Numbered from the stretch's first letter, positions 11,909 to 22,887 are shown. The stretch is 64,000 bases of DNA from Candidatus Gottesmanbacteria bacterium (GCA_903821745.1 CAIJMI010000005.1:263802-327801), one strand, 5' to 3'. Numbers and translations are program-made. Notes: a model not told the origin generated them from the sequence alone.

Positions 11909-12541
11909 ATGGAGATACAAACATTTATGACACAACCAACCCCCAAAGAACAATATGCACCTGCAGCATTTTTGATGACCGCAGACAGCACGAAAATCCG
12001 TTGCGTTGATGAACGGGAAGCGAAAGATGTCATCAATAACGGCGTTGCTGTTCCAGGTGGAATTTACGGCGTCATCGATACCATTAAAGTAACAGCTGGC
12101 GTGAGCGAAGAGGCAGCATGGCAGATGGCACAAAACGCAGGGATTCCCATTGGTGGACACATGGATGAACATCATGGACCAAAAGGATGCGGATATGGAA
12201 AACTGGTAGAAACAGAACCTGCAACTGTCGGTGCAACCGAAGCTATTCCCGCAGAGATCCGGAAAAATCGCATCGAGCAAGCGCATGGCGAACTCGTGAC
12301 ACTTCTTGGCGATCATCACCCGACGGAAGCCATCATCAATTCCCGTCAGGGAACGACCATTGATACAAAAAAAGCGTCACAGAGTGGACGCGGTATTTTT
12401 GATTTTGACGTCTGGGCAATGGAAGGCTATGCAGAAAAACTACAGCTTGATCCGGGAACGTTTACGAGTCATATGATTGATGTGTACAAAAAAACCGTCA
12501 CTAAATTAACGGGCATCACAACGTTTACGGAAGTAAAATAA
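11909..12541 (+). CDS. Hypothetical protein with Cys/His cluster
   Basis: 210 aa. Contains KIRCVDER (CxDxR) and GGHMDEHHGPKGCGYG, which could be a metal site. Not confidently assignable; the spacing does not fit a canonical beta-carbonic anhydrase. Confidence 0.45.
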   Translation: MEIQTFMTQPTPKEQYAPAAFLMTADSTKIRCVDEREAKDVINNGVAVPGGIYGVIDTIKVTAGVSEEAAWQMAQNAGIPIGGHMDEHHGPKGCGYGKLVETEPATVGATEAIPAEIRKNRIEQAHGELVTLLGDHHPTEAIINSRQGTTIDTKKASQSGRGIFDFDVWAMEGYAEKLQLDPGTFTSHMIDVYKKTVTKLTGITTFTEVK

Positions 12542-13716: not shown

Positions 13717-14050
13717 AGATCTATCGTACCACGAAATGGAAAAAACGATATATACAAAAGGAACCTTAGTAAAAAAGAAGAAAAATAATTTCGCTCGAAG
13801 GGTTGTAAAGGTTTTCCCCGTCTAGAACTATTTGGTAGGACTGATCATTTGCCCTCGGGCAAGCGATACTGTCGTCCTGTAGCGTTTGATAAATATAACA
13901 AACGCGAACCTCATTGATGAGAAATTTGTAGAGGAAAAATCGCTTTACAAATATTCCCTTCAGAGCAGATATAAGCGTAGAACAAAAAACAGATGATGTC
14001 AAGAAAATTATGAAAAAAGGTATAATATATCTGTACTCTATATAAAAAGT

Positions 14051-14644
14051 ATGAAAACTATCTATTTTGTTCGCCACGGGGATAAAGTTATTGATATTGG
14101 TAATGTCGGTTTAACCGAAGTAGGAAAAAAACAAGCGGAAAATACAGCTAACTTTTTTAAGAAAAAATCTATTGACTATCTACTTTCAAGCCCTTATAAA
14201 CGTACCGCCGAGACTGCAAACATTATTAGTTCTAATATACACATTCCAGTTATTTTTGATGAACGACTAAAAGAACGGATGTTTTTCGGCGAAATTCCAA
14301 ACATTAATTACCAACAATACATCTCACTTTGTGCAAAATCATCCATTCATAGAGATTATATTTTACCGAATGGAGTTTCGTCATACTTGGTAGGAAAAAG
14401 AGTCACCGAATTAGTTGATGAAATTATTAACTCCAATCATACAAATATAGTTATTGTCTCACATTTAGGCACAATTGCAGATTATATTAGAAATATTTTT
14501 TCTAAGCGCATTCTTAGAGAACAACAACCTGAATTTGTTAAAACGTTTGATTTAAAACTCGCCTCTATTACCGCTATCGCGTATACGAATTTAAACGCTC
14601 GAATATTAACACTAGGCTCAACTCTTCATTTAGATAAATTCTAA
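14051..14644 (+). CDS. Histidine phosphatase family protein (phosphoglycerate-mutase-like)
   Basis: IYFVRHGD (RHG catalytic motif), a later SSPYKRTAETA segment, and VSHLGTI near the C-terminus. Lies in an AT-rich segment. Confidence 0.7.
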   Translation: MKTIYFVRHGDKVIDIGNVGLTEVGKKQAENTANFFKKKSIDYLLSSPYKRTAETANIISSNIHIPVIFDERLKERMFFGEIPNINYQQYISLCAKSSIHRDYILPNGVSSYLVGKRVTELVDEIINSNHTNIVIVSHLGTIADYIRNIFSKRILREQQPEFVKTFDLKLASITAIAYTNLNARILTLGSTLHLDKF

Positions 14645-14684
14645 AAAATTGAATTTAGCTTGTTAAAGCAATATAATCTAGCAT

Positions 14685-15242
14685 ATGTCCGCTGAAGTTA
14701 TTCGGTATTCTGTTCTAGAAAGCTATCAAAATCATCCAATTGAATCACCAATTAATTTGAATGTCTATGAAAAAAATGTATCTGCTTTTTCGAAAAGCAC
14801 CGTGTTCTTCGGCACGGATCAGGACAATAATCATATTGCTTTAAAACTGTCGGCCTATCCTTGGGGTGCACGAAGAGAATGGAAAGGTTTACAAATAGCA
14901 TATTCACACAATATACCCACACCCGAACCATTTGATCTTGTTAAAACAGAAAACGGTGTCTTAGGTATCACAAGTAGAAAATTTGATGGAGTAAATTTAT
15001 ATACAAACTCGGCACCAGAGTTAAAAGCTCTTTTTGGCTCGATTATAAATACTATGCACAATACTGTCCCTGTTGAAGGAACTGAATGGAAAAACTCAGG
15101 TAAAATGGACTTCACATACTTCGATAAGGAAATAGAACGCTGGAATTCCGCAAGATTACCTGAGCTACAAAAGAAAAATAGATCACAAAAACTTTTAGAA
15201 AAATTTTCAAAAGCAGTTCATGATCAGAAAACTAGTTTTTAA
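14685..15242 (+). CDS. Kinase-like (phosphotransferase/APH-like) N-lobe fragment, probably truncated
   Basis: 185 aa resembling only an N-terminal lobe (ALKLS lysine region) with no HxD/DxxE catalytic loop. The 3' end overlaps the convergent YcaO remnant. AT-rich. Confidence 0.3.
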   Translation: MSAEVIRYSVLESYQNHPIESPINLNVYEKNVSAFSKSTVFFGTDQDNNHIALKLSAYPWGARREWKGLQIAYSHNIPTPEPFDLVKTENGVLGITSRKFDGVNLYTNSAPELKALFGSIINTMHNTVPVEGTEWKNSGKMDFTYFDKEIERWNSARLPELQKKNRSQKLLEKFSKAVHDQKTSF

Positions 15243-16055
15243 ACCGCAATGAATTGCCGGACCTATTCCTGTTCTGTCAACTAAAATGGTCACAAAAGTC
15301 GGAACACCAAGATCAGAAGTAATATCCATGATATGTCCTTCAATTCGATACCGATTTAATATACTCAACAAAGTTGTAATTCGCGCATCAGGGATTTTCT
15401 CCAAATCTACTTTATCATTCTCTAATTTATTCAAATAACTGATCATAAAAGCATCTCTTTCAATCACCTCATATATACCTCTCACTAAAGCTGATGCTAA
15501 ACACCCTCCAGCCGCAGCACCAGTACTAATAGGTACTGATAGCATTCCCTCATGTTCTTGAAATCTATAAGAATGATATATTAGATGCGCGGGTATATAC
15601 TTCTCACCATTTTGAGTTAAATTTTTGCACAAAACCCAATTATATCGAGTCGTTTCGTCGCAAGACCCTATATTTTGTTTTTCTAAAAATGAAAGCGGTG
15701 ATAAATCAATAGCTTTCTTCTTGATATCTTTATATGAAGAAAAAACAAACGAATGCTTTCTATAAATAGTACAGGCATATCGTTCTATAGCTTCAGATAT
15801 ACATTTAAGTAAAGCGATATCTTCTGAATATAGTGAAGCACCGTTTGACCGTTTAGAATCTACATCCCAACCATCTGTTTCTTTAGAAAAATCGTTAAGT
15901 TCCGCCGTAAATTAATAAAACTTTGGTTCATCACTAAATTGATGAACTCTAAATACTGATCGAATAAAATTCAGCTCTGGAAATAAAGATAAAAAATCCA
16001 GAAGTGATTGTTGAACACTTTTCTCATTTTGAGAGAATATATTCTCACTTATCAT
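15207..16055 (-). pseudogene. YcaO-domain (RiPP cyclodehydratase-like) gene interrupted by an in-frame TAA and C-terminally short
   Basis: My own translation of the minus strand: ATG at 16055-16053, 47 codons, TAA at 15914-15912, then the same frame continues with ...LKCISEAIERY... (YcaO ExxER motif) and SVPISTGAAAGGCLASALVRGIYEVIERDAF (YcaO nucleotide-binding signature). Total 282 codons against about 400 for intact YcaO proteins. The track ORF 15207-15632 starts at a TTG. Confidence 0.55.
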
Positions 16056-16171
16056 ATGCCAAGACGACTTTCAACCGATTATTATACCAACATACATAAA
16101 AGTCAATAAATTCCAACTTGGACGCATCCAGTATTTACGATATAATGACAACTATCACATTGTCAGGATGG

Positions 16172-16256
16172 CAGAGTGGACAATCGCAACAGTCTGTAAA
16201 ACTGTCGCCTTAACGGGCTACCCAGGTTCGAATCCTGGTCCTGACACAATGACTAT
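16172..16256 (+). tRNA. tRNA-Tyr (anticodon GTA), type II with long variable arm
   Basis: Acceptor GTCAGGA/TCCTGAC, anticodon arm ACAGT-CTGTAAA-ACTGT, long variable arm, T arm CCAGG-TTCGAAT-CCTGG. TATAAT at 16151-16156 upstream. D-arm pairing is imperfect by eye. Confidence 0.7.
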
Positions 16257-16270
16257 TCATGCCGAGATAG

Positions 16271-16345
16271 CTCAGTGGTAGAGCAACTGTTTTGTAAACA
16301 GTAGGTCCGGGGTCCGAATCCCCGCCTCGGCTCCAAATACCTTTT
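16271..16345 (+). tRNA. tRNA-Thr (anticodon TGT), CCA encoded
   Basis: Cloverleaf by eye: GCCGAGA-TA-GCTC-AGTGGTA-GAGC-A-ACTGT-TTTGTAA-ACAGT-AGGTC-CGGGG-TCCGAAT-CCCCG-CCTCGGC-T-CCA. Confidence 0.75.
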
Positions 16346-16347
16346 CT

Positions 16348-17025
16348 TCAAAGAACCCTTCGTTTTTTCAAATGCAGATACGGCGTACGTTCTGCTTCCA
16401 CTACAAAATCATATTTGTCAGTATCAAGGCAAAATGAAAAATCATCCTCAGGAAATTCTGGTTTTTCTGGATCAAAAAACCAAGATGATCTGTACCGTTT
16501 CCGCAGTTGTTTTACAATTCCATTCATGTCTGATTGTTTTCCTTTAAGGAAATCTATCATATAGTCGGCAAACAAATCATCTTCAGTGCCTACTCCTGCA
16601 AGTACAAGAAATGACACTGTTTCTGGTGTTACGTGTTTAATCAAAGAACAAATAGCTCCTGCAGTGACAAATCCACCAAATACCAATGTCGTTGCACGTG
16701 TTGCACGAACCAATCCTTGCGTTCCTTGTGTTGACCGGTGCACTATGGTAATTCCAGTAAGATCAACAGAAGAAATAAGAAAGGGAGAATTCCCATAATC
16801 AAACCCAGGAATTGGTATTCCATGATCCTCACCCATCATGCGCGTATTCGGGTGCAGTGCTTTGAAAGCAAAAGCATCTTCTTTTGTTGTAACAGGAATA
16901 ATTTCTTGTGCCCCCTGAGATAACGCACATGCAGCGGTCGTTGCCGCACGGAAGACGTCAATCATCACGACAAAATCTGTTGCTTCTTTCGCCTGCTCAA
17001 CTCCATAAAACTTTTTGATATGCAT
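16348..17025 (-). CDS. 2-phosphosulfolactate phosphatase (ComB)-like protein
   Basis: VVMIDVFRAATTAA matches the ComB family signature VIDVLRATST. Start at ATG 17023-17025. Confidence 0.55.
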   Translation of the reverse strand: MHIKKFYGVEQAKEATDFVVMIDVFRAATTAACALSQGAQEIIPVTTKEDAFAFKALHPNTRMMGEDHGIPIPGFDYGNSPFLISSVDLTGITIVHRSTQGTQGLVRATRATTLVFGGFVTAGAICSLIKHVTPETVSFLVLAGVGTEDDLFADYMIDFLKGKQSDMNGIVKQLRKRYRSSWFFDPEKPEFPEDDFSFCLDTDKYDFVVEAERTPYLHLKKRRVL

Positions 17026-18858: not shown

Positions 18859-19800
18859 TTAGGCAAGAGAAAATTTTTTCTTTAATGCAATAATCATGGT
18901 TTCTGTCATTTTCGGCAACGTGTATTCGTGGTTCCATCCCCAATCTTTCCGGGCAACCGAATCATCAATAGACTGCGGCCAGCTGTCGGCAATGGCCTGA
19001 TGAAAATCCGGTTTGTATGTTACGTCAACTTTCAACTGTTTGTTGATTTCTTTCGCAAGTTCCTCTGCAGTAAAACTAATAGCAGCGAGGTTGTAACTCG
19101 TATGGATGGTAAGTTTTGAAGGGTCTGCTTCCATCAGTTCCATCGTCCCCCGTACCGCATCATCCATATACATCATGGGCAAGGTGGTATCAGGCCGAAC
19201 GAAACATTCGTAGCTTCCTTTTTGTAACCCGTCATAAAAAATGGCAACCGCATAATCTGTTGTTCCGCCACCGGGTGGTGTTTTCCAACTGATGATGCCG
19301 GGATACCGAACCGATCGGATATCCACACCAAATTTTTTGTGGTAATACGCAACCAACAGTTCTCCAGCAACTTTTGTGACCCCATACATCGTGGTCGGTT
19401 CAAGCACTGTTTGTTGTGGTGTGTTGACGCGGGGGGTAGTTGGACCGAATGCAGCAATGGAACTTGGCCAAAACACCTGCAGGTTGTACTTCACCGCAAG
19501 GTCTAAAATAATTTTTAATCCCCCCATGTTAATCTGCCAGGTCAAGGAAGGATCCACTTCTCCTTTTGCAGAAAGAAGCGATACGAGATGATAGACCGTA
19601 TCAATGGAATATTTTTTAATAATTGCTTCCAACTTGTCTCCCTCACCGATCTCCGCTTGCTCAACGATTCCTTGAAAATCTTTTGGAATCGTGTGATGAC
19701 CAATCGCAACCACGTGATCAACCCCAAATTTTTTCTGAAGCGCTGGAACGAGTTCACTGCCAATTTGTCCAAATGCTCCGGTAACCAAAATATTGTTCAT
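18859..19800 (-). CDS. tdh: L-threonine 3-dehydrogenase (NAD-dependent epimerase/dehydratase family)
   Basis: [12 protein letters not shown] Rossmann motif, YxxxK in an SDR-extended fold, and the classic tdh-kbl pairing. Confidence 0.7.
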
Positions 19801-19939
19801 AGACTTTTTCTCCTATATATACTTAGTCGAAAACCAATACAAAATCATGCGGATGAAAACTACATCCATACTGTATCGGTGCAGCAAAAAAAAGTCAACA
19901 ATACAAAGAGAAGAAATATTTGATAAAATGAAAACCATT

Positions 19940-20010
19940 GCCCGATTAGTTTAACGGTAAAACGGAGTCTTGGTAAGACTCAGAAGAAAGTTCGACTCTC
20001 TCATCGGGCT
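19940..20010 (+). tRNA. tRNA-Thr (anticodon GGT)
   Basis: GCCCGAT-TA-GTTT-AACGGTA-AAAC-G-GAGTC-TTGGTAA-GACTC-AGAA-GAAAG-TTCGACT-CTCTC-ATCGGGC-T. A TAAAAT -10-like element sits 7 nt upstream. Confidence 0.7.
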
Positions 20011-20152
20011 CATAATAAAACCGTGACAAAAAATCACGATTTAAAAAATAATATTTTCCTCACTTGACATCCTATACTATTTAATTGAAACTTATAGAGG
20101 AACGTATTTTTTACGTTTTATTTGTATTGAACTATTTTTTTGAAATTATTGT

Positions 20153-20539
20153 ATGCTACATTCACCACGAGAAGAAGACAGCGAACTGTTTGGTCAGGAA
20201 TTAACCCTGAATTTATACGGTTGCAATCTTGCAACCATTTCCTCCCGTACAAAAATCCGAAAATTTGTCATTGAACTTTGTGATCATGTCATTCACATGA
20301 AGCGATACGGGAAAGCATTTATTCCCCATTTCGGTCATGAAAATCCAATCACATCAGGATTCTCTCTGGTCCAACTTATCGAAACCAGCTCCGTCACTGC
20401 CCATTTTTCAGAATACAAAAAAGCCGTGTACATGAATATTTTTTCCTGTGCATGGTTTGACGCAAAAATCACCACCAAGTTCTGCAAAACATATTTTGGT
20501 GCAAAAACGGTCAAAGCAAAACTCACCAAACGCCCCTAA
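20153..20539 (+). CDS. S-adenosylmethionine decarboxylase-like pyruvoyl-dependent decarboxylase (SpeH class)
   Basis: LYGC, LVQLIETSSVTAHFSE (the ES/H cleavage-site region) and VYMNIFSCAWFD fit the small archaeal/bacterial AdoMetDC proenzyme family. Confidence 0.55.
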   Translation: MLHSPREEDSELFGQELTLNLYGCNLATISSRTKIRKFVIELCDHVIHMKRYGKAFIPHFGHENPITSGFSLVQLIETSSVTAHFSEYKKAVYMNIFSCAWFDAKITTKFCKTYFGAKTVKAKLTKRP

Positions 20540-20583: not shown

Positions 20584-22887
20584 ATGGTAAATATATATCC
20601 TATGAAACAGCAATTGTTTCTCTCTTTTTCCCATGGTATTGTAAAACGCTCATTCAAAACCTGCTGTCGTGTTTTTTTTATCGCGGTAGTAATGATTGCA
20701 CTCTTTTGTTTTCGACCTGTTGCAACCAATGTTTGGGCATGCACATCATGTGGTGAGGTACCTTGTACTAGTAGTCAGAATAAATCTACGACTGGCTGCC
20801 CTTCTGGTACGTGGTGCTGTGTAGCAAAACCGGCAACGAGCACCCCAATACCGGCAACGAGCACCCCGAAACCAGCAACAAGCACCCCGAGGCCCCCATA
20901 TTGTTTATCGGAATACACCTGTGGTACAGCTTGTTGTCCTTGCGGATGTACCCCATCATCAACCGGTGGATCATGTACATCACCGTGCCCAACAAACACA
21001 AAAGCCCCAACCTCAACACCAACTCCAGTATGTGATGTTTGGCACCTCATTAATTGCCTTTGCGGATGTACTGCAAATACATGTAACACGTGCCCAACCG
21101 CTACCCCGATACCATGTTTAGCAACTGGTCAGGCGTGTTCAACGAACAGTCAATGCTGCAGTAATAAATGCAATAATTTAGGTGATGGTTCATATTGTGT
21201 TGTTAACACCTCAACCAATACCCCGACCCCGACAACATCTATTTCACAGTCTTGCTACCCCATTGGCAGTAGTAAATGCGTAGATAGCTTTAATTCCTCT
21301 GAATGCCTATCTAATTATACCTGGAGTGCACCAAATTCATGTCATTTCCCCTGTGTAGGAAGCCCTTCAGTTAACTGCCAAAACGATCAGTGCTGCCCTG
21401 ATCCTGCAGGTGATAACCCATACTGTGTTGGGTATTGTTCTCGATATTGCACTAGTCCACAAAAGCTATTGAATTGTTGGGCAAACTACCAAGCGTATTT
21501 AAACGATAAACTCAAAGACGACAATCTTGGTACGCTTTCTTCAGGGTGTGTAACGACAACAACCGCTTGCTTAGAATGTGTCGTCACCTGGGAGCGGTGC
21601 GGAGGAACCGCAACCTGTCCATCCGGACAGTACCCCTGGTGGAACAGCTGTTCTGATAATTTCTGCAGTACAGCCATGTGTGGAACCCCTGCACCCGGGT
21701 GCACCCCAAATTGCAGTTGCGCAACGGCGCTCTGTTCGACACAAACGTGTTCAGACGGATGCGGCGGTGTATGCCACGGAACCAATCCCTGTTATGGCAC
21801 GATTCAGGCAAAAGCCGTTATTACTGAAAGCTGCAGCACCATTGCCACGGCAGAACCACTCAATGATACGACCATAACCTTAAACAACGCTGACCCAAAA
21901 ACACAGACAAATGGCATCCCCGTCACCTGGACAAACGTACCCATTGGTACATATACGGTCTCTGCTACCAATGCCATTTCCACGCTTGTCCCGAAAATAT
22001 ACTGCATTCCAAATGGAAGCGGGTACGTTGAGGGAAGTTCACAAACGCTTGAAACAAACGGATCCATATCGTTTTTCATAGGATTTGCACCTCCGAACGG
22101 CTGGGTACAAGCAATCGGAGGCGATGTCTATGCAAAAGGCCAACTCACCTCCTCTGTTCCGGCAACTTATTATTTTTCACTGGCCGGAGCTATGGGCGAT
22201 GCGGGAATCGTATCGTATGGAACACTCAATGGCTATGACTTTTCCCTCTCAGATACAGACAAAGGCGAAACACAGGTGTCCCTCCCGCCAGCCTGGCTAG
22301 TCTACAATCCCAACAATCCATCACTTCATCTCTACGAACAGTTTGCAACACAGTTTGATATTCCTGGAAACACACCACTCCTGGCATCTTCACCGTTAAC
22401 CGTAACAAAACCTACGTGTGACACAACGCCATTACCCTGTGTCTTTTATGTAAGTGGCGATCTGGAGACAACTTCGGGAAATCCATGGACCATTGGATCA
22501 ACAGAACAGATGGTTATATTTGTTAGTGGAAGTGCACATATTAACAGCCCCATAACCATCACACCAGGCGGATTTTTTGCCCTTATCGTCAATGGCACTA
22601 TTACTGTCGACTCTACCGTTGGTGGACCAGCAGCAAATACTGTGCCAACGCTTGAGGGCATCTATATCACAAACCAATTTGAAACAGGAACAAGTGACAC
22701 CGTTGGGACAGAACGGCTGAACATCAAAGGGTCTGTCATCGCAGATATGTTTCTTCTAAATCGGTCTCTTGGCATATTCAACGCAACGCTTCCCGCAGAA
22801 CAGTTTACCTTCAACCCACAACTGCTCTTTACGATGCCAGACAAAATGAAAGAAATTCCCTATGTCTGGCAGGAAGTGGCACCCTGA
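20584..22887 (+). CDS. Large cysteine-rich secreted/surface protein with PATSTP tandem repeats
   Basis: Signal-anchor at the N-terminus, about 400 aa with very many Cys in C-x-C/CC patterns, then a roughly 350 aa Thr/Ser-rich beta-type domain. No catalytic motif recognised. Confidence 0.5.
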   Translation: MVNIYPMKQQLFLSFSHGIVKRSFKTCCRVFFIAVVMIALFCFRPVATNVWACTSCGEVPCTSSQNKSTTGCPSGTWCCVAKPATSTPIPATSTPKPATSTPRPPYCLSEYTCGTACCPCGCTPSSTGGSCTSPCPTNTKAPTSTPTPVCDVWHLINCLCGCTANTCNTCPTATPIPCLATGQACSTNSQCCSNKCNNLGDGSYCVVNTSTNTPTPTTSISQSCYPIGSSKCVDSFNSSECLSNYTWSAPNSCHFPCVGSPSVNCQNDQCCPDPAGDNPYCVGYCSRYCTSPQKLLNCWANYQAYLNDKLKDDNLGTLSSGCVTTTTACLECVVTWERCGGTATCPSGQYPWWNSCSDNFCSTAMCGTPAPGCTPNCSCATALCSTQTCSDGCGGVCHGTNPCYGTIQAKAVITESCSTIATAEPLNDTTITLNNADPKTQTNGIPVTWTNVPIGTYTVSATNAISTLVPKIYCIPNGSGYVEGSSQTLETNGSISFFIGFAPPNGWVQAIGGDVYAKGQLTSSVPATYYFSLAGAMGDAGIVSYGTLNGYDFSLSDTDKGETQVSLPPAWLVYNPNNPSLHLYEQFATQFDIPGNTPLLASSPLTVTKPTCDTTPLPCVFYVSGDLETTSGNPWTIGSTEQMVIFVSGSAHINSPITITPGGFFALIVNGTITVDSTVGGPAANTVPTLEGIYITNQFETGTSDTVGTERLNIKGSVIADMFLLNRSLGIFNATLPAEQFTFNPQLLFTMPDKMKEIPYVWQEVAP
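20829..20891 (+). repeat. 3 x 21-bp tandem repeat encoding (P)ATSTP(I/K)
   Basis: Direct tandem copies accggcaacgagcaccccaat / accggcaacgagcaccccgaa / accagcaacaagcaccccgag. Confidence 0.6.

Follow-up and report, generated by a model that had tools for sequence, protein, structure and literature searches.

In a 64,000-nucleotide stretch of DNA assigned to a Candidatus Gottesmanbacteria bacterium (GCA_903821745.1 CAIJMI010000005.1:263802-327801; hereafter the window, with positions counted from its first letter), an islet of low guanine plus cytosine (GC) content at 14013..16133 lies next to a tRNA-Tyr/tRNA-Thr gene pair and contains a histidine phosphatase gene (14051..14644, plus strand), a truncated gene for a kinase of the aminoglycoside phosphotransferase (APH) type (14685..15242, plus strand) and a SagD-type YcaO pseudogene (15207..16055, minus strand). 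We conclude that this islet is very probably what is left of a horizontally transferred cassette, some 4 kb in size and dedicated to a linear azole-containing peptide (LAP), of the thiazole/oxazole-modified microcin (TOMM) type, that was put out of action by two lesions. An earlier inspection of the same DNA, made from the sequence alone (the sequence-only reading), described the genes here as accessory or decayed; rather than independent accessory genes, they are the survivors of one conserved five-gene cassette.

Intact versions of this cassette are present in other metagenomes. The set comprises six copies, namely L011/L012, L013/L014, L015 and L016, which were reached through the APH family, and L020 and L021, which came from a YcaO-based metagenome scan; all four divergent representatives of the APH family for which the context was examined are located in a phosphatase/kinase/YcaO cassette. 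In the convergent copies, the phosphatase gene and the APH-type kinase gene downstream of it face, on the opposite strand, a gene for a Gly/Cys/Ser-rich precursor peptide, a gene for a SagB dehydrogenase and a gene for a SagD-type YcaO, in this order from the kinase outward. L013/L014, L015 and L016 (His_Phos_1, APH, small open reading frame (ORF), nitroreductase, YcaO) as well as L020 have this layout, which is also that of the window, and in them the precursor and SagB genes lie between the kinase and YcaO genes. The L011/L012 copy is co-directional (His_Phos_1, 85-aa ORF, APH, YcaO, nitroreductase, 80-aa ORF), and so is that of L021. For each of the three window genes, the best or near-best homolog belongs to this same cassette, with 42-45% identity for YcaO, 35-41% for APH and 32-44% for the phosphatase, and the islet (0.333) and the convergent-type cassettes (0.32-0.38) are alike in GC content. 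Kinase and phosphatase are lacking from the more distant YcaO-nitroreductase pairs (L004, L005-7, L008, L022-24). Pattern scans with the APH alignment, which is too divergent for this purpose, gave nothing, and nothing was found in a scan of viral contigs with P0045. Several additional small genes accompany individual copies: a charged helical protein of 85 aa without a Pfam match is encoded between the phosphatase and the kinase in L011 (5763-6020), a 70-aa ORF, also without a Pfam match, lies upstream of the phosphatase in L015 (44-256), and a protein with a GIY-YIG nuclease domain is encoded upstream in L013 (4889-5155).

The composition of the intact copies points to azole-peptide biosynthesis. 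In L015, the sole intact cassette whose YcaO/nitroreductase pair was compared with the TIGR03604 and TIGR03605 profiles, the YcaO protein passes the SagD profile (TIGR03604; 257.3 bits against a cut-off of 219) and the nitroreductase passes that of the SagB peptide dehydrogenase (TIGR03605; 146 bits against 78). A SagB-type dehydrogenase gene is present in all intact cassettes. Five of the six also encode a precursor with an ARP[LMVI] leader motif, in the form EARP in four of the five, followed by a core rich in Cys, Ser and Gly (such as ...DSCSGGCGGSSDGCSCDSSG or ...SCGGGGSCGGGGSCGCDACCSGTCGACTCDSGG); no precursor gene was found in L021. The profile of the cassette YcaO is nearest to MusD, TruD and LynD (about 1e-30), with the McrA-thioamidation YcaO MJ1094 far behind (2e-12). 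The sequence-only reading had listed azoline or thioamide formation in peptides made by ribosomes and modified after translation (RiPPs), ribosomal protein modification and methyl-coenzyme M reductase modification as the chemistries open to a YcaO; given that the L015 homologs pass the SagD and SagB cut-offs and that the profile is far nearer to azoline cyclodehydratases, the azoline/azole RiPP type is retained and the remaining ones are disfavoured. Its proposal to search elsewhere for an intact YcaO with partner genes also proved productive, in that a SagB dehydrogenase and a precursor are encoded beside YcaO, whereas among Pfam annotations no E1-like (SagC/McbB) or Ocin-ThiF partner is found within or next to cassettes of the phosphatase/kinase type; the one YcaO with a ThiF companion is the distant one of L004. 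The YcaO proteins of the cassette are about 450 aa long and have an N-terminal extension of about 75 residues with a conserved DEPxF[YF]Q motif. A literature search for a cluster of phosphatase, APH and YcaO genes returned nothing relevant, which is weak evidence given that most subscription journals are outside the coverage; the intact kinase/phosphatase azole-peptide cassette thus appears to be a so far undescribed variant of the TOMM/LAP theme.

Against this background, the YcaO gene of the window is readily recognized as a remnant. As the sequence-only reading had it, the frame (minus strand, from 16055 down to 15207) consists of an ATG, 47 codons and a TAA, and then stays open, through the ExxER motif, for 234 codons. 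The conceptual translation matches PF02624, as was expected (E = 2.1e-39; 136 bits, the cut-off being 25.7), the match being limited to profile positions 7-201 of 325; with TIGR03604 it scores 141.2 bits, below the cut-off of 219.25, over model positions 5-210 of 377. The frame has one stop, compared with 22.5 +/- 4.4 in shuffled sequences and with 25 and 29 in the remaining two frames, which identifies it as a recently inactivated coding sequence rather than a chance ORF. The acidic ATP/Mg-binding motifs (ExxER and GxxExxERD) are kept (E88, E91, R92, E196, E199, R200 and D201). In the alignment with the L015 and L016 YcaOs, the remnant covers residue 1 to about 285 of their 451-452 residues, and homology extends from its residue 1 to about residue 276 (...GIGPAIHCGLKTS), which matches residue ~285 in homologs of 448-452 aa, so that residues 1 to ~276 of an ancestral protein of ~450 aa are retained. 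The remaining tail, FLIMNCF with its stop, is antisense APH sequence. A complete YcaO domain is accordingly not encoded: in addition to the TAA at codon 48, about 170 C-terminal residues, including the conserved PHPFL end, are missing. The sequence-only reading was right that the protein ends short, although its estimate of about 120 residues is too low when the closest family (448-452 aa) is used as the standard.

The nonsense codon (15912..15914, minus strand; YcaO codon 48) falls within the region of the N-terminal extension. The 47 codons upstream of it align with the N-termini of the homologs from residue 1, and in the YcaOs of all four intact cassettes that were aligned the position is occupied by Gln (DEPxF[YF]-Q-[FY]), and therefore the lesion can be described as CAA>TAA, a single C>T transition. 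It could be asked whether both lesions are artefacts, the TAA a sequencing error and the kinase-YcaO junction described below an assembly collapse, with an intact cassette in the real genome. The junction is located on a 12-bp palindrome, and short-read assemblers can mis-join at repeats; such a palindrome is, however, far below assembly k-mers (one of the contigs is named k141), and two independent lesions would both have to be false. Moreover, the phosphatase protein is present on 11 contigs, and among these the DNA of three assemblies from different pipelines and accessions (L001, L002 and L003; one ENA MEGAHIT contig, one ENA scaffold and one Logan contig) is readable and identical to the window over the whole islet. 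One of them, L002, is identical through 21038 and diverges from 21039 on, that is, it represents a separate genotype that differs some 5 kb away. An artefact is thus exceedingly improbable. TAA is also the terminator of 19 of the 29 long ORFs in the window; judging from this and from the agreement of the three assemblies, the codon is taken to be neither a sequencing error nor a recoding event, and the view that the TAA is real and the gene a relic holds. Together, the alignments support the interpretation of the window YcaO as a genuine pseudogene of the azoline/azole RiPP type.

Truncation has also affected the kinase-like ORF. It has no match in Pfam even at E <= 10, and a word-indexed homology search recovered only the ORF itself. 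An exhaustive HMMER search of 1.84 billion representatives delineated a small family of 54 proteins at E <= 1e-3, nearly all of 297-323 aa, and the ORF aligns only to residues ~10-180 of its members. Five of the six full-length homologs that were compared with PF01636 (APH), which are 34-40% identical to the query, score above the cut-off, which the sixth (P0052) narrowly misses. The ORF covers the first ~181 residues of homologs of 303-309 aa, and the alignment ends right before the PVFNHNDLH catalytic loop and the IDFE motif; the catalytic loop (HxDxxxxN) and the DFG-type metal-binding motif of the C-lobe are both missing. The AlphaFold model is confident for residues 1-110, which form a beta-sheet and one long helix, and each of the 50 listed Foldseek hits has a kinase fold (among them RIO kinases, APHs, ethanolamine kinase and Raf) and is aligned through its N-lobe over ~90-130 columns; the E-values are weak (4.6e-3 at best), though the hit list is uniform. 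The suggestion that only an N-lobe is left is therefore borne out by both the alignment and the model.

The overlap between the two damaged genes marks the place where the rest of the cassette was lost. The kinase-like and YcaO ORFs overlap convergently by 36 bp (15207-15242), as the sequence-only reading had noticed; the overlap is real, and we reinterpret it as the scar of a single deletion. The homology to APH ends near 15227 and that to YcaO near 15231, and the junction is located on a perfect 12-bp palindrome, AAAACTAGTTTT (15228..15239), which both ORFs read as K-T-S-F. The kinase gene is thus native to about 15227, its last codons (KTSF and the stop) being antisense YcaO sequence; each frame runs past the junction into the antisense of the other gene up to the first stop, and hence the 36-bp overlap. 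Measured against three references, the lost segment amounts to 1916, 2042 and 1931 bp. Intact cassettes span about 3.93-3.98 kb, whereas the distance from the phosphatase start to the YcaO start in the window is 2005 bp. tblastn of the cassette dehydrogenases, the precursors and the L004 ThiF protein against the 64-kb window found none of them, and with six dehydrogenases of the cassettes or their relatives there was nothing at E < 0.1. From these alignments, one internal deletion of ~1.9-2.0 kb evidently took the C-lobe of the kinase, the precursor, the dehydrogenase and the last ~170 residues of YcaO. Only 15 such 12-bp palindromes exist in the 64-kb window, so that a junction on one of them by coincidence is unlikely, but the palindrome was noticed after the fact. 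An inversion of YcaO relative to the kinase, considered on account of the co-directional L011/L012 copy, was dropped; the convergent layout is natural in L013-L016 and L020, and therefore a single deletion suffices.

The clean state of both frames (one stop in YcaO where ~22 are expected and no internal stops in the APH frame) could also be taken as a sign that the fragments function in a new role, be it a 112- or 141-aa YcaO piece, which is what gene callers annotate here, a kinase N-lobe serving as a binding protein, or a 282-aa YcaO made by read-through of the TAA. Recent inactivation alone predicts clean frames, and the products would have little to work with: the last ~170 YcaO residues with the conserved C-terminal PHPFL motif are gone, the kinase lacks the catalytic loop and the DFE motif, no substrate gene or dehydrogenase is left, and TAA is the normal stop in this genome. 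We accordingly regard a new role as most improbable and, by sequence criteria, no peptide product is expected to form in this genome, given that the precursor and the dehydrogenase are absent and both YcaO and the kinase are broken.

The phosphatase stands apart as the sole intact cassette gene of the window. It had been counted among the accessory or decayed genes; instead, it is full length, with PF00300 (branch 1) matched over profile positions 1-191 of 194 (E = 6.4e-26) and the catalytic residues kept (R8-H9-G10, R51, E75 and H138), and its nearest solved relatives are phosphatases of the CobC and PhoE types. It is 32-44% identical to the phosphatases of all six intact cassettes and departs from them at 6 of the 34 positions that are invariant among these (18%), including LPNG-E-S>V; the window YcaO departs at 9 of 61 sites invariant in the other cassette YcaOs (15%), including AGGSS>SNGAS. 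In the leave-one-out comparison these two values are the highest, by a small margin over the intact homologs (0-15%), and they would be compatible with mildly relaxed constraint without proving it. The phosphatase is the only islet gene whose product, as far as its motifs indicate, could still be active.

The islet is set off from its surroundings in both composition and gene content. In agreement with the sequence-only reading of an AT-rich stretch, the GC content in sliding windows is 0.30-0.35 across 13750-16250, compared with 0.42-0.48 in the flanks; it is 0.333 for the islet proper (14018-16133) and 0.441 and 0.436 for the remainder of the window. At third codon positions (GC3) the three islet genes have 0.21-0.27, that is, 3.0 to 4.2 standard deviations below the host mean of 0.390 (sd 0.042; z = -3.0 to -4.2). 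The window is syntenic on both sides of the islet with L010, a related metagenome-assembled genome whose proteins are named Candidatus Gottesmanbacteria by NCBI, at 72-81% nucleotide identity; a neighbouring 161-aa protein has 73% amino acid identity in L017 and 60% in the more distant L019. These three relatives share one arrangement, in which ArsR and a conserved noncoding element are followed, 16-58 bp further on, by tRNA-Tyr, tRNA-Thr and a membrane protein of 16x aa, and none of them has a match to the cassette proteins. In blastn and other alignments, homology to L010, L017 and L019 is lost between window positions 13986 and 14017 and is back at 16131-16134; with L010, it resumes at the -10 box of the tRNA-Tyr promoter (TTTACGATATAATGACA). 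On grounds of parsimony and composition, the 2.1-kb islet appears to be an insertion in the lineage of the window, that is, a stretch not only compositionally foreign, as had been thought, but moreover missing from the relatives.

With only three comparator genomes in which the site is intact, and in a plastic neighbourhood with IS200/605 transposases by the ArsR gene in L010 and L017, it could be argued that the cassette is ancestral at this site and that the islet is a remnant of vertical inheritance, the related genomes having lost it cleanly. Such a history would require at least two or three independent, near-precise losses, one of them in the more distant L019, and would leave unexplained why GC3 is 3-4 standard deviations below that of host genes even in the intact phosphatase and why the cassette is found in unrelated contexts elsewhere, including a phage-like contig. 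We consider it unlikely and retain horizontal acquisition.

The immediate right-hand neighbours of the islet are tRNA-Tyr (gta; 16162..16247) and tRNA-Thr (tgt; 16261..16335), both placed on the plus strand by ARAGORN and supported by Rfam, so that the islet indeed lies directly 5' of the pair. The further step of the sequence-only reading, to a classic tRNA integration hotspot, does not follow. An island formed by an integrase recombining with the tRNA gene would account for the position beside the pair, the foreign composition and the absence from relatives, and a second lineage-specific gene (ComB-like, 16348-17025) is present 3' of tRNA-Thr. Against this, the islet lies 5' of tRNA-Tyr and ends 28-31 bp upstream of the mature tRNA; genes for an integrase or a recombinase are absent; no repeat of either tRNA end (direct repeats of the 3' end had been proposed as border marks) occurs within 9-22 kb, even with 5 mismatches allowed in 24; and a broader search for att sites, terminal inverted repeats and target duplications yielded only short, AT-rich matches at chance level, the best of which (I2) is a 15/20 match that overlaps the two inward-facing -10-like boxes. 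A tRNA-targeted island in this classic form is very improbable.

Several considerations weigh against the reading of the islet as a dead, horizontally acquired cassette. The transfer mechanism is not visible, there being no integrase, target duplication or terminal repeats; composition and three relatives are the basis for the polarity (insertion rather than loss); the nearest intact cassettes reach no more than about 40-45% identity, so that the donor is unsampled and its gene order conjectural; and the assemblies that agree on the lesions may derive from related samples. In favour of mobility, the L011 cassette adjoins genes for a small terminase (phrog_4102, E = 1e-12), an excisionase-like helix-turn-helix protein and giant phage-type proteins, and this copy is probably carried by a phage; such neighbours, together with the unrelated contexts of the other copies, suggest that the cassette is mobile.

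We propose the following scenario. The ancestral cassette would have consisted of phosphatase and APH-type kinase genes facing precursor, SagB-type flavin mononucleotide (FMN) dehydrogenase and SagD-type YcaO genes, and would have landed between the conserved structured noncoding element and the tRNA-Tyr promoter. A deletion of about 1.9-2.0 kb, fusing mid-kinase to mid-YcaO, and the CAA>TAA change at YcaO codon 48 then inactivated it, the order of the two lesions being a matter of conjecture. In the intact copies, by analogy with the respective families, YcaO would use ATP to cyclodehydrate Cys and Ser residues of the precursor core to azolines, and SagB would then oxidise the azolines to azoles. 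The kinase and the phosphatase, more speculatively, would most likely add and remove phosphate on the peptide or the product, for tailoring or self-protection. Because genes for E1-like or Ocin-ThiF partners are missing, it may be the ~75-residue N-terminal extension (DEPxF[YF]Q) of YcaO itself that recognises the leader. Somewhat short of even confidence, we suggest that the intact cassette represents an undescribed azole-peptide subclass in which phosphorylation and dephosphorylation take part in maturation or self-immunity, that it moves between uncultivated bacteria with small genomes and at least one phage, and that the window records a recent failed acquisition by a Gottesmanbacteria-like organism of the candidate phyla radiation (CPR).

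The relic as such is unremarkable, an accessory cassette whose acquisition and inactivation are both recent. Candidate-phyla organisms have minimal biosynthetic capacity, and the locus shows a cassette of the peptide-antibiotic type entering such a bacterium and dying quickly. So far, RiPP clusters of candidate-phyla bacteria have been noted only through automated calls (PMC12153355). Of wider interest is a compact, recurrent cassette that links azole formation with a kinase and a phosphatase of its own, without the usual E1-like leader-binding partner, and that could reveal a new logic of tailoring or immunity, or leader recognition by a stand-alone YcaO. The locus is also a worked example of an apparent convergent ORF overlap that is the scar of one deletion.

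The flanks of the islet contain additional features. The noncoding element between the ArsR-family gene and the islet is ~220 nt long (window 13783-14006; L010 5087-5313; L017 8462-8690; L019 2100-2325) and is better conserved (81-83%) than the adjoining coding DNA (72-78%). It folds as a closed multi-branch structure in which 10 base pairs show compensatory changes among the four sequences (e.g., TTGCCC/GGGCAA, CCCGCC/GGCGGG and GTACCC/GGGTAC), and has an invariant TTGACA at its right-hand end on the minus strand. Comparison with Rfam gave no match at E <= 1, and a metagenome scan with a 24-mer from the element found nothing. The element could represent a structured leader for the arsR-like gene or an independent small RNA, on either strand. 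At the other end, a promoter-like site of tRNA-Tyr (16119..16146, plus strand) has its -10 box, TATAAT, in the DNA common to the relatives and a -35-like hexamer in islet DNA, and a second promoter-like site, TTGACT-17-AATAAT, is present upstream of the YcaO start (16078..16106, minus strand; a consensus match only); in a promoter and terminator scan of the region, site counts were no higher than in shuffled sequences.

Directly 3' of tRNA-Thr, a gene of the ComB-like 2-phosphosulfolactate phosphatase family (16348-17025, minus strand; PF04029, E = 1e-36) has the lowest GC3 (0.28) of the genes treated as host. L010, L017 and L019 do not have it: in the first two the tRNA is directly followed by the membrane-protein gene, and in L019 an unrelated 103-aa ORF intervenes. 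By comparison with these relatives, the tRNA pair thus has a lineage-specific insertion on this side as well. L009, considered as a host relative by virtue of its ComB-like protein (42% identity), is non-syntenic, lacks the tRNAs and was not useful. An IS200/IS605-type Y1 transposase is encoded beside the ArsR gene in L010 (6058-12845 region) and L017 (7282-8070). In L010 it is part of an insertion of ~6.8 kb between the ArsR and deoxyribosyltransferase genes, which also includes a 964-aa gene whose 3' end matches the end of the 767-aa gene of the window (20584-22887). The point at which L002 diverges (21039) is inside this 767-aa ORF, with different gene calls beyond it, a strain-level structural variation ~5 kb from the islet. 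The neighbourhood is a rearrangement hotspot in this lineage. A second dip in GC content (0.34-0.38) at 19750-20500, around tRNA-Thr(ggt) (19940-20011) and an AdoMet decarboxylase gene, looks native rather than foreign, the stretch being kept in the relatives at 76-79% identity. A 210-aa protein encoded at 11909-12541 (plus strand) matches the cadmium carbonic anhydrase repeat family (PF18484 CDCA, E = 1e-9), an unusual family for a CPR genome, and is kept in related Gottesmanbacteria contigs.

Like tRNA-associated genomic islands, the islet adjoins tRNA genes, is foreign in composition and is absent in relatives, and unlike them, it is located 5' of the tRNA and has neither an integrase nor att-type direct repeats. 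The pairing of an APH-family kinase with a phosphatase in an antibiotic-like cluster recalls self-protection of producers by phosphorylation and dephosphorylation of the antibiotic, as with the kinase and activating phosphatase of the streptomycin type and the phosphotransferases for viomycin and capreomycin; the likeness is an analogy only, and with its RHG motif at residues 8-10 the window phosphatase shows no evident signal peptide. Among solved YcaO domains, the closest to that of the cassette are those of TruD, LynD and MusD (E about 1e-30), for which ATP-dependent azoline formation is established. These proteins are 775-784 aa long, with a fused N-terminal E1-like/leader-binding half, whereas the cassette YcaO, at ~450 aa, has the ~75-residue extension only.

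In gene content, the intact cassette resembles the TOMM/LAP clusters of microcin B17 (McbBCD) and streptolysin S (SagBCD), with which it shares a SagD-family YcaO, a SagB-family FMN dehydrogenase and a short Gly/Ser/Cys-rich precursor, the cores resembling the Gly/Cys/Ser tracts of the microcin B17 type. It differs from these systems in the lack of an annotated E1-like/SagC/McbB or Ocin-ThiF protein and in the additional APH-type kinase and PF00300 phosphatase; the window itself, unlike a TOMM/LAP cluster, keeps only a truncated, nonsense-bearing YcaO, without dehydrogenase or precursor. For the kinase, the nearest documented case of a PF01636 APH-like protein beside a YcaO within a RiPP cluster is TsaC/TsaD: in thioamitide/lanthidin clusters an APH-like kinase and a HopA1-like lyase, which occur with YcaO and TfuA, are involved in Ser/Thr dehydration, and the kinase is proposed to phosphorylate Ser/Thr of the peptide (PMC8153245). 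Dehydrazoles use LanM-like enzymes instead (PMC10676384). The kinase family of the cassette is only remotely similar to other APHs, and it departs from the TsaC/TsaD arrangement in both of its associations, the constant neighbour of the kinase being a PF00300 phosphatase rather than a HopA1 lyase and the partner of YcaO being SagB rather than TfuA.

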